Under the pieces are notes generated by a model. It was not told the DNA's origin and did no database searches. It saw only the letters and a list, made by a program, of their open reading frames with translations. The position numbers and the translations under genes were made by a program. From Clostridia bacterium (GTDB taxonomy: Bacteria > Bacillota > Clostridia > RGIG6154), in contig JAZUPZ010000007.1 in the NCBI GenBank assembly GCA_045605445.1, positions 2,924 to 66,923 of the forward strand: a stretch of 64,000 bases of DNA. Direction: 5' to 3'. Positions 52,257 to 57,473 of this stretch are shown here, one piece after another. Position 1 is the stretch's first letter. Each line of letters opens with the position of its first letter.

Positions 52257-52508
52257 ATGAATATGAGGAAAAAGAAAAATATATTTACAGTCTGCATAGT
52301 TGCAATTCTTTTAATTGCATTTTCTGTTTATCTTGTACCCGATGCCATAAAGCCTTTTTTTATGGCGGTATCCATAATTTCAGTTACAATTTTTATGATA
52401 GTGTTTTTTGCAATGTGGCGATGCCCGCACTGCGGCAGAAGTCTTGGCAGGCTCGATAACGCAACTCATTGTAAATATTGTGGCAAAAAACTCTACGAAA
52501 ATGAATAA
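52257..52508 (+). CDS. Small membrane protein with a C-terminal zinc ribbon
   Basis: 83 aa with two TM helices and CPHCG...CKYCG. Confidence 0.4.
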   Translation: MNMRKKKNIFTVCIVAILLIAFSVYLVPDAIKPFFMAVSIISVTIFMIVFFAMWRCPHCGRSLGRLDNATHCKYCGKKLYENE

Positions 52509-52586
52509 AATCAAACAAAGTCAGGCGATTTGCCTGACTTTTTACATCAACTATTCACTAAAAAAGAGCCTTTCGGCTCTTTTTAT
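52507..52586. repeat. D-type repeat carrying two terminator hairpins (copy 1)
   Basis: AAAATCAAACAAAGTCAGGCGATTTGCCTGACTTTTTACATCAACTATTCACT...AAAAAGAGCCTTTCGGCTCTTTTT. The second copy is at 53897-53997. Confidence 0.65.
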
Positions 52587-52789
52587 TTGTTCATTTTCGG
52601 ATTGTCGGTTCTTCCGAGAAGGTAATCAATCGAAACATCGAAGTAATCTGCAAACATAATAAGAGTGGCATAATCAGCTTCCCTTGCTCCGCTTTCGTAT
52701 CTGCTTATGCTGTTCTGATTCATATTCAAATCCATTGCAAGCTTTAACTGTGAAATTCCTTTTTCTTTTCGAAGAGCCTTAAGCCTCAT
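52583..52789 (-). CDS. XRE-family (Cro/C1-type) HTH regulator
   Basis: 68 aa with SQLKLAMDLNMNQNSISRYESG. Confidence 0.7.
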   Translation of the reverse strand: MRLKALRKEKGISQLKLAMDLNMNQNSISRYESGAREADYATLIMFADYFDVSIDYLLGRTDNPKMNK

Positions 52790-52790
52790 T

Positions 52791-52819
52791 GAATCACCTC
52801 TTGACTTTATTATCCCACT
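52791..52819 (+). promoter_or_regulatory. Promoter TTGACT-17-TATAAT
   Basis: Read directly from the sequence, in the divergent region between the XRE gene and the secreted-protein gene. Confidence 0.45.
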
Positions 52820-52875
52820 TTGGTATAATAAAAATATCCCAAAACGGGATATTTATTCAACAAAGGAGAATGAAC

Positions 52876-53883
52876 ATGAAAAAACTTATTACAATGGTAT
52901 TGGTTTTAAGTATGCTTATCAGCTGCTTTGCCGCTCTTCCTGCCCAGGCAAGAGTAGGAGATGTTGTAGGAACAGCATGGCACACAGATATTGTTACATA
53001 CATAAACCACTATGCGGTTCCGACTTATGTTGTTAACGACAGAGTTGTTGTTATTGCGGAAGATTTAAGAAACTTCGGCTTTAGTGTTATCTGGGACGGA
53101 ACCCAGAGAACTCTTACGATCTACAGAGACACCTATATCAACGTCGTAAAAATGATGAACGTAACCAAGGCCGGACAGCCTTCTACAAAATACAGAGATG
53201 TTCTTGAAACAGATATCAGAGTTTATGCAGGCGGAAGACAAATTACTTCTTATAACATCAACGGAATGACAATGATTCCTCTTGAAGAGCTCACAATGTT
53301 TGGCAGCTTTGTATGGCTGGATGAACAGAGAGTTCTCAAAATGTGGGTAGAAGACGGACTTTCAATGAACTCAACAATGCAGTATGTTGCGCCTTACGGT
53401 CAGGCTCCCGCACCAACACCAACTCCGACACCTTCTTATCCTTCTTACAATTCCTATTCTTCATCGTTTAATAATTTGAAAAATACAATACGCACAAAAG
53501 GAAGATATGTTACCGAAGGAGCTTATGCTTTAAGTCGTTCTTACAGCAACGGCTCTGAAATATCTTTAATGTATCTTCCTTCATCAGGTACAGCAGGAAA
53601 CTTTATAACTCTTTCGTTTTACCCTTATAAGGGCGATCGTGACAGCAGAGTAACCTTTTTTATAGAGGAAGATAAAACAATCCTCCTTCCGTGGGTTCTT
53701 ATTAAAATAGACGATGTAACTGCCTTTCAGGCAGAATTTAATAACGGAATAATGGAAGTTGAAAAAGGTCAATATACCTCCTCTACGTCCGGTTTGCTTA
53801 AATCTTGTATTTCACTTTTTGAAGAAGAATTATCCGACTGGGGATGTAATATAAAATTGAGCGACTTTGGTATTACTTATTGA
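52876..53883 (+). CDS. Secreted protein with a CuAO-N-like cell-surface domain, PT linker and unknown C-terminal domain
   Basis: Signal peptide MKKLITMVLVLSMLISCFAALPAQA, a PAPTPTPTPS linker, and RBS AAGGAGA. Confidence 0.5.
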   Translation: MKKLITMVLVLSMLISCFAALPAQARVGDVVGTAWHTDIVTYINHYAVPTYVVNDRVVVIAEDLRNFGFSVIWDGTQRTLTIYRDTYINVVKMMNVTKAGQPSTKYRDVLETDIRVYAGGRQITSYNINGMTMIPLEELTMFGSFVWLDEQRVLKMWVEDGLSMNSTMQYVAPYGQAPAPTPTPTPSYPSYNSYSSSFNNLKNTIRTKGRYVTEGAYALSRSYSNGSEISLMYLPSSGTAGNFITLSFYPYKGDRDSRVTFFIEEDKTILLPWVLIKIDDVTAFQAEFNNGIMEVEKGQYTSSTSGLLKSCISLFEEELSDWGCNIKLSDFGITY

Positions 53884-53896
53884 TATAACTGAAAAA

Positions 53897-53997
53897 TAAA
53901 ATCAAACAAAGTCAGGCGATTTGCCTGACTTTTTACATCAACTATTCACTATTCATTATTCACTATTAACTAAAAAAGAGCCTTTCGGCTCTTTTTT
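53897..53997. repeat. D-type repeat copy 2, with expanded ACTATTCA heptad repeats
   Basis: Same two hairpins as copy 1. Confidence 0.65.
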
Positions 53998-56627: not shown

Positions 56628-56675
56628 TGTTGATTTCAATTCGTGCCGTAAGGCAATTCATTGATTTCATCTTCG
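56628..56675. repeat. 42 bp direct repeat (copy 1) containing the perfect palindrome GATTTCATC-TTC-GATGAAATC
   Basis: CGTAAGGCAATTCATTGATTTCATCTTCGATGAAATCATTAT versus CGTAAGGAATTTATATCGCTGATTTCATCTTCGATGAAATCATTAT at 57286-57335. Confidence 0.6.
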
Positions 56676-56684
56676 ATGAAATCA

Positions 56685-57032
56685 TTATTTTGGTTTTTTC
56701 TTTGCGGTTGTAATTGACGCTATAAGCTTCCTTCGAATTGTTCCGCATTTGTTATTCAAATTACTATATGTTATTTTGTCTATTGCATTCACTTTGAACA
56801 AAATTTCCAACCAATATTCTGTTTCAAAGCACTCTTTGAGAGCAATTTCAAGCTTGTGTATAAAATCTGCTCTGCTCTGGGCATATTTTGCTTCGTGTGA
56901 ATTTGCACCAATTGATGAGCAAGAACGCAAAAGTTGATTTGTAAATACTGCTCTGCCCTTTAATTCATCACAGATCATAGTTGTTTCAACAATCAACTCT
57001 ACCGCTAATTCCTTGATAGTTTTATTGTTCAT
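56685..57032 (-). CDS. Four-helix-bundle protein (23S rRNA intervening-sequence protein family, Avd-like fold)
   Basis: The 115 aa core MNNKTIKELAVELIV...SCSSIGANSHEAKYAQSRADFIHKLEIALKECFETEYWLEIL fits PF05635-type proteins. RBS AGAGG upstream. The ORF-track N-terminal extension is probably not translated. Confidence 0.6.
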   Translation of the reverse strand: MNNKTIKELAVELIVETTMICDELKGRAVFTNQLLRSCSSIGANSHEAKYAQSRADFIHKLEIALKECFETEYWLEILFKVNAIDKITYSNLNNKCGTIRRKLIASITTAKKKPK

Positions 57033-57048
57033 AATATAAGCCTCTTTC

Positions 57049-57300
57049 TGCGATATACTCACTTTGCTCGTGCGATATATTTTCGCTTTGTTCAAATGCG
57101 ATATAACTTCGCTTTGCTTAGTTGCGATATGATATAAGAACCTCACGAAATATGACAAAATCAAAGATTTCTATATTTCGGAGAACCTTAATACTCGCAG
57201 GCTCGTATTAAATTCCTTTGTCATTTTTGCAATCTCATTACGAAGTAATATATCGCATCGAAGATATATCGCGTACAAAGTGCATATCGCAAATGACGTA
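57049..57300. promoter_or_regulatory. Iteron-like array: 4x TGCGATAT (57049-57135) and 3x ATATCGC (57245-57290), in inverted orientation around a central region
   Basis: Read directly from the sequence. Lies upstream of the four-helix-bundle gene. Confidence 0.4.
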
Positions 57301-57335
57301 AGGAATTTATATCGCTGATTTCATCTTCGATGAAA
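57286..57335. repeat. 42 bp direct repeat, copy 2
   Basis: See copy 1. Confidence 0.6.
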
Positions 57336-57392
57336 TCATTATACAATATATTTTCCCTTTTTTCAACATACATTTAACTGAGGTGATAATGT

Positions 57393-57473
57393 TGAAAAAA
57401 CTTGGTTATGCTTTTGTGGCAGCTTTGTTGCTGCTTGCGATTTTAACTATATCAAGGAATCTTTTTTAGTCCA
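57393..57473 (+). CDS. Possible 26 aa hydrophobic peptide (MLKKLGYAFVAALLLLAILTISRNLF)
   Basis: RBS-like GAGGTGA 7 nt upstream of the ATG. Single TM helix. Unverified. Confidence 0.2.

Follow-up and report, generated by a model that had tools for sequence, protein, structure and literature searches.

The four-helix-bundle gene and its leader

We analyzed a 64,000-nucleotide stretch of DNA from a Clostridia bacterium (assembly GCA_045605445.1, contig JAZUPZ010000007.1), called the window below, in which a gene for a small four-helix-bundle (4HB) protein is preceded by a leader made of repeated 7-nucleotide (nt) boxes and small hairpins. This module lies among cell-wall genes in the order dac, module, femX, alr, dtd, all on the minus strand. 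The architecture of the module and the family assignment of its protein are near certain. The fuller reading, that the leader is an RNA bound by its own pentameric protein and carried on a horizontally moving cassette, is one to which we give about an even chance.

The protein matches PF05635 at 77 bits (cutoff 33.8) and TIGR02436 at 87.2 bits (cutoff 24) in profile hidden Markov model searches, and its closest solved structure is PDB 2RLD (E 2.6e-22), which was deposited with five chains. The initial annotation, made from the DNA sequence, had assigned the 115-amino-acid minus-strand gene to the type found in 23S rRNA intervening sequences (IVSs) and as Avd in diversity-generating retroelements (DGRs), here outside rRNA and without an adjoining reverse transcriptase (RT); all of this was borne out, the neighboring genes being dac, femX, alr, and dtd. 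The family motif (G)xxRxxxSxxxNxxE (PMC3936711) is present as RSCSSIGANSHE, and members of the family form homopentameric rings (PMC4990558). The open reading frame (ORF) is intact in 80 of 84 homologue copies, and because most differences fall at third codon positions (7512, 3807, and 20874 at positions 1, 2, and 3), the protein is under selection. More than 8000 relatives exist; the 120 best listed have identities of 78-100%. Neither PADLOC nor PHROGs matched the window protein, and queries for exact sequence matches to the 4HB and FemX proteins of the window and to P0001 recovered no contig.

The features of the module are given below by their positions in the window.

57338..57366, minus strand: sigma-A-type promoter TTGAAA-17-TATAAT (11 of 12 matches; -35 box 57366-57361, -10 box 57343-57338), which is the host's and is also present in the module-free relative L084
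57316..57338, minus strand: upstream copy of hairpin HP0, TGATTTCATC-GAA-GATGAAATCA, with a perfect 10-bp stem and 3-nt loop, box 1 following directly
57250..57315, minus strand: 5' array, GCGAUAU boxes 1-4 (57315-09, 57290-84, 57272-66, 57256-50) with hairpins hpA, hpB, and hpC between them; the part that resembles Gut-1 RNA
57131..57249, minus strand: central region, with hpD ATTAC-TTCG-GTAAT (57249-57237), GGAATTT (57216-57210), then an insert, then a linker
57050..57130, minus strand: 3' array, AUAUCGC anti-boxes 5-8 (57130-24, 57104-098, 57078-72, 57056-50) with hpE, hpF, and hpG between them
57041..57049, minus strand: ribosome-binding site AGAAAGAGG, directly after box 8 and 8 nt ahead of the ATG; conserved in the alignment
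56685..57032, minus strand: 4HB protein gene, 115 amino acids, pI 9.2, ATG at 57032; PF05635/TIGR02436
56662..56684, minus strand: downstream copy of HP0, identical to the upstream copy, directly past the stop codon
56631..56661, minus strand: decayed restart of the leader, with box 1 missing and an hpA relic, ATGAATTGCCTTACGGCACGAATT, ending in TGAAATCA (56638-56631)
56631..57337, minus strand: inserted segment relative to L084, about 707 bp, edges uncertain by a few bases

The module begins directly past the -10 box and shares one T with TATAAT. The central insert is a structured element of ~79 nt (about 57209-57131), extra to the usual layout and common to the window and locus L018, and the degenerate linker ends in ..GGTTCTTATATC.

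Several details of the repeats differ from the initial annotation, which described 42-bp direct repeats with 9-bp hairpin stems, each followed by a T-rich tail, around GCGATAT sets of four and three copies. The repeats are real, but their perfect part is 27 nt (TGATTTCATCTTCGATGAAATCATTAT, exact copies at 56662-56688 and 57316-57342). No third copy occurs in the 64 kb, and none arose in 100 shuffles. Likeness runs on to about 43-50 nt (CGTAAGG..AATT) past a 7-nt gap, which exists because the left copy lacks one GCGATAT box; read on the minus strand, the right copy continues from ..TCA into GCGATATAAATTCCTTACGTCATTT and the left copy from ..TCA into ATGAATTGCCTTACGGCACGAATT. The left repeat is a decayed second copy of the leader start, comprising HP0 and the first hairpin with box 1 deleted, and its terminal TGAAATCA (56638-56631) equals the last 8 nt of HP0 and forms the right end of the inserted segment. 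The hairpins inside the repeats are indeed perfect, with stems of 10 bp and loops of 3 nt. The T tract follows the left copy on the plus strand, but not the right copy, nor either copy on the gene strand, where GCGATAT or ATGAATT comes right after the hairpin; they are therefore not terminators of that strand and do not have the intrinsic-terminator form there. HP0 was also considered as the dac terminator and rejected, as that terminator is a separate hairpin at 57358-57400 that is conserved in L084.

The inverted GCGATAT sets hold four copies each rather than four and three. The window has 13 copies, eight of them within 57050-57315 (plus strand: 57050, 57072, 57098, 57124; minus strand: 57250, 57266, 57284, 57309), and the one at 57309, the fourth of the minus-strand set, adjoins the right hairpin. 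Shuffled versions of the whole window contain 5.7 copies on average and at most 12. Other box arrays were sought across the window and none was found. At the Rfam gathering threshold there was no match in the module region, and weak matches to SAM-II, snoRNAs, GAIT, and a microRNA were dismissed as chance.

Many deposited 4HB homologues (P0007, P0010, P0013, and others) are annotated as 131-167 amino acids long, mostly 155-163. Their counterpart in the window would be a 159-amino-acid ORF that starts at TTG and runs through 57033-57164 on the minus strand. The longer versions, often of 155-167 amino acids, are probably ORF calls that run upstream into the 3' box array, likely a systematic error in start-site assignment.

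Conservation of the leader in other genomes

Using the 4HB protein, we retrieved 80 genome loci (labeled L001 onward) from Oscillospirales metagenome-assembled genomes, many of them from ruminant gut; 77 have enough upstream sequence for the leader to be read. The same layout precedes the 4HB gene in all 77. Its first half comprises HP0, box 1 GCGATAT, hpA (AAATTCC-loop-GGAATTT), box 2, hpB, box 3, hpC, box 4, and hpD, and its second half comprises a linker ending in ..GGAATTTATATC, the ATATCGC box 5, hpE, box 6, hpF, box 7, hpG, box 8, AGAAAGAGG, and the ATG. The leader is about 215-290 nt long, has exactly 4+4 boxes in 67 of the 77 loci, and ends 0-3 nt from the ribosome-binding site. The segments between boxes are all small hairpins, with 35-52 distinct sequences per position. 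HP0 has a stem of 6-17 bp and a loop of mostly 3 nt; it was recognized by strict criteria in 68 of 77 loci, where it takes 53 distinct sequences, 48 beginning with TG and 48 finishing with CA.

The window copy is typical except for its central insert, degenerate hpA, and degenerate linker. A covariance model (R1) built without the window recovers the 5' half of the window copy with 68.5 bits (E 3e-12) at 57317-57215 on the minus strand. The same model scores 26 bits on the 3' array read on the plus strand, a measure of the likeness of that array to the 5' array.

Searching elsewhere for the repeat and the arrays, as the initial annotation suggested, thus recovered the arrays at every readable locus, and the same hairpin was found in other contexts in other genomes. 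The idea that the GCGATAT arrays are DNA iterons particular to this locus does not survive this comparison: they are conserved boxes of a structured leader, probably of RNA, whose spacer hairpins covary. The direct repeats do bound the segment in the window, but they are not a defining feature of the architecture, since most loci have no downstream hairpin. Exact HP0 copies follow the 4HB stop codon in the window, L001, L060, L041, and L027. At least 13 other loci carry a second whole 5'-type array 3' of the 4HB gene, often ending in a terminator, and in L046, L056, and L073 complementary arrays enclose the 4HB ORF, with a 5'-type array and terminator standing alone after the gene.

Box sequences differ among modules. 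Five complete families were found: GCGAUAU/AUAUCGC, GUGAUAU/AUAUCAC, UGAAAU/AUUUCA, AGCUAAAU/AUUUAGCU, and UCGAUAU/AUAUCGA. GUGAUAU and UGAAAU come from L169 and L170, AGCUAAAU/AUUUAGCU from a second gene in L034 (54% identical), and UCGAUAU from L015; a search of all loci for further divergent 4HB copies gave only this second copy in L034. A sixth family, AUGAUAU, is represented by L071, whose contig ends ahead of the anti-boxes. In every complete family, the box and anti-box sets are complementary, and they are uniform inside each module. In the four families that retain the gene, the boxes differ along with the protein subfamilies, which are 53-56% identical to the window protein, a pattern that fits recognition of the boxes by the protein.

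Three further observations concern unusual copies and the 3' hairpins. L015 (3905-4130) holds a complete TCGATAT/ATATCGA leader whose HP0 is nearly that of the window (the last base is G, not A); its 4HB ORF is deleted to the last ~20 nt plus the tail, and the leader now lies in the 5' untranslated region (UTR) of a short-chain dehydrogenase gene. Additional copies of HP0 and the 5' array occur without a 4HB gene in L053 (4986-5090), L042 (2064-2171), and L077 (3588-3696), 0.6-2 kb downstream of the main module; they are located past a second rumA paralogue, ahead of a lipoprotein gene, and directly ahead of an rlmB-like rRNA methyltransferase gene, respectively. Finally, hpE-hpG (window 57105-57123, 57079-57097, and 57057-57071, minus strand) have in most loci a stem-GA..GA-stem arrangement, in which the G.A mismatches are in tandem and the triloop is GAA or AAA (as in ACGAAC-GAA-GUGAGU). 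This arrangement resembles known protein-binding RNA motifs.

Folding and covariation

The hairpins between boxes covary. In a model-fitted alignment of 88 arrays (A3), 94.7% of cells in the local hairpins are paired, compared with 19-55% in slid controls, and all 19 hairpin pairs change on both sides (317 such cells). As A3 leans toward the structure, plain MAFFT alignments were used as well. There, hpA is 94.8% paired, and for hpB, hpD, and hpG RNAalifold finds 8-19 double changes per pair. The window has a folding z-score of -6.3 and L006 one of -4.7.

A second conserved pairing, which was not expected, involves more distant sequences. GAUAU of box 1 and the 5' arm of hpA can form a 12-bp helix with the linker GGAAUUUAUAUC. 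In the MAFFT alignment this helix is 97.8% paired with 14 double-change cells (slid controls 27-51%), and it is better kept than hpA. Changes are concerted in all three strands: AAATCC occurs with GGATTT and GGATTT, for instance, and AAATCCC with GGGATTT. That the 5' arm of hpA can thus pair in two alternative ways is the signature of a switch. RNAalifold and RNAfold also pair box 1 with box 8, box 2 with box 7, and box 4 with box 5; because boxes are nearly invariant within a family, this pairing rests on changes between families and on L071.

These data bear on the possibility that the GCGATAT sets and HP0 are a DNA operator or iteron array over the transcription start that binds a repressor, possibly the 4HB protein. 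Inverted 4+4 sites would suit such an operator, the 3' array resembles the 5' array on the other strand, and HP0 overlaps -7 to +16 of a good promoter, its palindrome extending upstream of the expected +1 in a way that RNA does not explain. However, the spacers are hairpins rich in compensatory changes, for which a double-stranded operator has no need, and the 12-bp long-range helix covaries. HP0 is also highly variable (53 versions), and at least 26 loci, at the rumA end, have no promoter at HP0. We therefore consider a DNA operator very improbable. Our preference is for a leader that acts as RNA rather than as single-stranded DNA. RNA is favored by the strand, by the hairpin covariation, and by the position of the leader between a promoter and a ribosome-binding site. 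The initial suggestion of an autoregulated operator array may be right in spirit, at the level of RNA.

Relationship to Gut-1 RNA

The 5' array resembles Gut-1 (Rfam RF01706), which was described as a noncoding RNA (ncRNA) found only in human-gut metagenomes, 'probably not' cis-regulatory and without an assigned function (Weinberg et al. 2010, PMC2864571). The window array scores 22 bits (E 0.13) against this model, below its gathering threshold of 50 bits, and the arrays of relatives score 26-41.6 bits in full-length model alignments. Both start with CA plus a box, have three small hairpins split by repeated 7-nt boxes, and share a source in gut Clostridia-type metagenomes; the boxes are UGAAAU in Gut-1, in contrast to GCGAUAU in the window. 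Two contigs retrieved through the protein exceed the threshold, L170 with 65 bits and L169 with 59.1 bits, in each case ~140 nt upstream of the start of a 4HB gene whose product is 53% or 56% identical to that of the window. One of them matches BAAZ01025322 in Weinberg's Gut-1 alignment file, as judged by eye.

Because true Gut-1 matches occur upstream of homologous 4HB genes, Gut-1 is the 5' third of a longer leader of PF05635 genes, and the window carries a variant with different boxes. The published description covers this third only; the upstream hairpin, linker helix, complementary 3' array, and link to PF05635 lie outside it. In the literature on PF05635, S23p, HEPN, and heptamer repeats, of which our coverage was incomplete, no report connects such genes with Gut-1 or with box arrays. 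Neither Rfam 15 nor the papers searched contain the leader in full, the alternative helices, the rule that boxes and anti-boxes are complementary, the connection between Gut-1 and PF05635, or the insertion behavior described below. Gut-1, which since 2010 has had no function, host, or gene association, would thereby gain a partner.

Alternatively, the array could be an independent ncRNA of the Gut-1 type that merely neighbors the 4HB gene and whose boxes act in trans, for example, on anti-box arrays of other mRNAs. The lone 5'-type arrays with terminators past the gene in L046, L056, and L073, some Gut-1 sequences of Weinberg's file, and arrays ahead of other genes (L042, L077, and L076) would be expected of such an RNA. 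It is nevertheless quite improbable, since in 77 of 77 readable loci the array is directly upstream of the 4HB gene on the same strand, it ends 0-3 nt from the ribosome-binding site, and box families change with protein subfamilies.

Insertion and placement of modules

In the closest relative, L084 (FemX 93% identical), the genes are arranged as response regulator, dac, 156 bp, femX, alr, dtd, without a module, and the dac terminator and the TTGAAA-17-TATAAT promoter are the same as in the window. The module is therefore an insertion in the window's lineage, which answers the question, raised at the outset, whether it was inserted between femX and dac. Homology with L084 resumes at 56630, where the insert ends in ..CGAATTGAAATCA and host sequence follows with ACACGTAAAC. 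As its last 8 nt are the end of HP0, the insert is bounded by TGATTTCA...TGAAATCA, counting the shared T at 57338. Its position between the -10 box and the femX 5' UTR places the 4HB gene, femX, alr, and dtd under one promoter, and because the module has no terminator on its strand, femX-alr-dtd are presumably transcribed by readthrough of it. In more distant relatives dac and femX overlap, or a pantothenate kinase gene lies between them. A target-site duplication was considered as the origin of the window's direct repeat and rejected, because the empty site in L084 has no HP0-like sequence.

Two kinds of site recur in other genomes. Of the 68 loci in which HP0 passes the strict criteria, 26 have a -10 box abutting it; a proper -35 box is also present in 22 of these 26, and none of the 26 is a rumA site. 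In at least 26 loci the module lies at the very end of a gene for a RumA-type 23S rRNA methyltransferase, where codons for E-x-V-x-x-L make up the 5' arm of HP0 and the final residues and stop codon are encoded by its 3' arm. We examined 80 close rumA homologues from metagenomes; none has a module, and the endings inspected have no strong hairpin. This led us to reject the idea that rumA genes natively end in a hairpin, and indicates that the 3' arm of HP0 has been made to match host sequence. The same is true at two other upstream genes (L075 and L082). Template-switch 'correction' of quasi-palindromes is a possible route to such hairpins. For L069 and L077, a location past mini-RNase III was rejected, as the upstream gene is by sequence a seryl-tRNA synthetase.

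Two side observations also concern the rumA site. Upstream of HP0 in L047 and L058 lies the ORF of a large serine recombinase, whose C-terminal codons, beside HP0, are rumA-like. In many of the loci L089-L168 the rumA ORF continues into foreign sequence (..LLSKGEVDSKKIRVEF.., ..LLSRETNPLTVEV..), so the rumA 3' end also houses other mobile elements.

In our reading the module is a horizontally moving cassette with a conjectural mode of movement. One possibility is a mobile cassette bounded by hairpins, in which HP0 is a structure-specific recombination site (like attC or IS200/IS605 ends, or a palindrome hot spot), the HP0-leader-gene-HP0 unit moves by cuts at the hairpins, and the arrays are end structures, not regulators. 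The polymorphism with L084 is consistent with this, one breakpoint falling on the base that opens one HP0 and the other on the base that closes a third, partial HP0, as are the exact HP0 copies that flank the 4HB gene in the five loci named above. Tandem or partial units occur, as do relics of the 4HB 3' end upstream of HP0; the same HP0 sequence recurs in other genomes in unrelated contexts; and the module repeatedly occupies precise positions, directly past a -10 box in 26 loci and at the 3' end of rumA in at least 26. In L037 the module is flanked by a 25-nt direct repeat of the rumA 3' end (22 of 25 identical), and the native rumA end and the usual next gene, for an ASCH protein, lie ~90 nt past the 4HB gene. 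PF05635 genes elsewhere, moreover, are wedged into operons or genes; others have noted them in cas operons and between housekeeping genes.

Other observations fit such a cassette poorly. The module has no recombinase or transposase (no search was made for a transposase elsewhere), most loci have no downstream hairpin, and genomes among the 80 listed loci usually carry a single copy. The empty site in L084 without an HP0-like target means that the repeat is not a target duplication, and at rumA loci host coding sequence makes up the 5' arm of HP0 and the native ends inspected have no strong hairpin, which a fixed element end does not explain. This kind of mobility is thus a tentative possibility that we are inclined to doubt, and it is compatible with a protein-bound RNA leader.

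Like foldback and MITE-like elements and integron cassettes, the module has inverted arrays of short repeats, hairpin direct repeats around one small gene, and presence/absence polymorphism. Unlike them, it has no transposase or integrase, no attC anatomy, and no target duplication at L084, and most copies have no second hairpin. The perfect 10-bp palindrome of HP0 has TG..CA ends and lacks a GTTRRRY core, and the module carries a single gene. No integrase was found beside it, judging from Pfam searches of the dac and femX products and inspection by eye of the other ORFs at 54-60 kb. With respect to non-autonomous IS200/IS605-type elements (PATEs), which have similar subterminal hairpins at both ends, insert 3' of a short fixed target, and make no target duplication, the observations point both ways: the two window hairpins are identical to each other, in direct orientation, right after TATAAT, and without duplication relative to L084, but most loci have no second hairpin and rumA-type sites have a different left flank.

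A possible mechanism

A protein-bound RNA leader might function as follows. The leader would be transcribed, here from the host femX promoter, and could adopt two folds. Pairing of boxes 1-4 with boxes 8-5 would produce the first, a rod built from short helices and bearing side hairpins; in the second, box 1 and the first hairpin arm would form the 12-bp helix with the linker, and the leader would toggle between the two. The basic ring protein would most likely bind its own leader by the repeated boxes, the HP0 stem-loop, or both, with autoregulation or a ribonucleoprotein particle as the outcome. Binding to its own leader is favored by the pentameric rings of the family, by the way Avd holds its RNA, and by the variation of the boxes with protein subfamily. 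Lying between promoters and cell-wall genes that are essential, the module may also modulate the expression of these genes.

Autoregulatory leaders bound by ring-shaped or ribosomal proteins are known, for example, the trp leader bound by TRAP. As in leaders of that type, the module has short motifs at regular spacing in a 5' leader ahead of a ribosome-binding site, and alternative pairings. Protein binding by the module is putative, unlike that of TRAP, and its motifs have complementary partners in cis. The precedent for such binding is Avd, a relative of the protein in DGRs, all five subunits of which grip an 11-bp stem-loop adjoining the avd gene itself (bioRxiv 2023.10.23.563531). Both systems place a basic pentameric 4HB barrel, a trait of the family, beside a structured RNA, and HP0 is a stem-loop of 10-13 bp. 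The DGR RNA is downstream of its gene, however, whereas that of the module is upstream, and the repeated boxes have no DGR counterpart. Near the window gene we found no RT and no template or variable repeats, the sole repeats being those described here; within ~3 kb of it lie dtd, alr, femX, and dac and genes for a response regulator and a histidine kinase.

Several observations weigh against this mechanism. The boxes are nearly invariant inside the GCGAUAU family, where L071 (GUGAUAU with AUAUCAC) is the sole compensated locus, and complementarity between boxes and anti-boxes would be expected equally of inverted DNA sites. Four boxes do not match a five-fold ring. Where a -10 box abuts HP0, transcription is expected to start inside the 5' arm of HP0; the RNA of such promoter-type loci would then contain HP0 only in part, since its palindrome extends upstream of the expected +1. 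Arrays also occur without a 4HB gene in cis, in L015, L042, L053, and L077 and in some of the Gut-1 sequences in Weinberg's file, and the window's own copy is atypical in its degenerate hpA and linker and its ~79-nt extra insert.

Comparison with 23S rRNA intervening sequences

The 23S rRNA IVSs that carry an S23p ORF (Coxiella, Leptospira, and Brucella; PMC4990558) encode the same protein family between self-complementary flanks, and they have been regarded as selfish or possibly mobile. They too can have heptamer repeats just ahead of the start codon, such as the GACAGAT repeats that precede the homologous ORF in Coxiella (PMC4990558). Unlike IVSs, which lie in helix 25 or 45, the module is not in 23S rRNA, and Rfam finds no rRNA in the window. 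Its two arrays are both upstream of the ORF rather than enclosing it, leaving just HP0 and the hpA relic 3' of the gene. The window ORF is intact and under selection, in contrast to the Coxiella IVS ORF, which is decaying and probably untranslated (PMC4990558).

Arrays of short repeats and their complements also frame more distant PF05635 genes that lie on plasmids. In Nostoc the arrangement is (AATTCGC)x4, ribosome-binding site, ORF, (GCGAATT)x4, apparently located in a DNA methyltransferase gene. Bernardetia has (ATTAGTG)x15 upstream, Treponema has long purine heptamer arrays with complementary pyrimidine arrays, and Monoglobus has inverted AGGAATGAG repeats between hsdS and hsdR. The Nostoc copy (L173; Nostoc sp. 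ATCC 53789 plasmid pNsp_c, 46534-46899) lies between a 76-amino-acid fragment annotated as 'DNA cytosine methyltransferase' and a hypothetical ORF of 92 amino acids, and this cassette may have split the methyltransferase gene.

Such parallels raise the possibility that the module is processed in the manner of an IVS, with the stacked box/anti-box helices and HP0 cut by RNase III so as to separate or destabilize parts of the operon mRNA, the protein being incidental or dispensable. Homologous ORFs do occur within RNase III-cut stems in 23S IVSs, with heptamers preceding the Coxiella ORF; complementary heptamer arrays enclose the distant homologues in Nostoc, Monoglobus, and Treponema; and in at least 13 loci the second 5'-type array could pair with the anti-boxes and so enclose the ORF. 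However, the helices are just 7 bp long and interrupted by junctions, the downstream array of the window has decayed, and the clear purifying selection on the ORF implies that the protein matters. Cleavage by RNase III is compatible with an RNA leader bound by its own protein, but as an explanation of the module it seems unlikely.

The box/anti-box design, together with the heptamer arrays of distant homologues and of the Coxiella IVS, suggests that one principle underlies 'intervening sequences' inside and outside rRNA. On a more speculative level, PF05635 rings and box/anti-box arrays might form one class of cassette across phyla, with Gut-1, 23S IVSs, and the cyanobacterial heptamer-flanked copies as variants. 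The pentamer would read its own heptamers in RNA or single-stranded DNA, and the cassette would invade transcribed DNA past a -10 box or in the rumA 3' tail, where a hairpin-templated HP0 would be built from the host flank. We have little confidence in so broad a scheme. The S23p/IVS 4HB family is widespread, with structures solved since 2006 (Lin et al. 2006, as cited in PMC4990558), yet no role is known for it except in DGRs. Should the protein bind the leader, the question becomes directly testable with a 115-amino-acid protein and a 200-nt RNA.

Other features in the window

A full-length OLE (ornate large extremophilic) RNA occupies 1911-2546 on the plus strand (467 bits, E 6e-134); no other Rfam family exceeds its threshold in the window. 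A second gene is also bounded by hairpin direct repeats, located at 52504-52584 and 53895-53996; the repeated segments are 57 nt (100% identical) and 35 nt (97%), and each repeat holds a terminator-like hairpin. They flank a 364-amino-acid ORF (52789-53883, plus strand) that has a hydrophobic, signal-peptide-like N terminus and lies just upstream of dtd.

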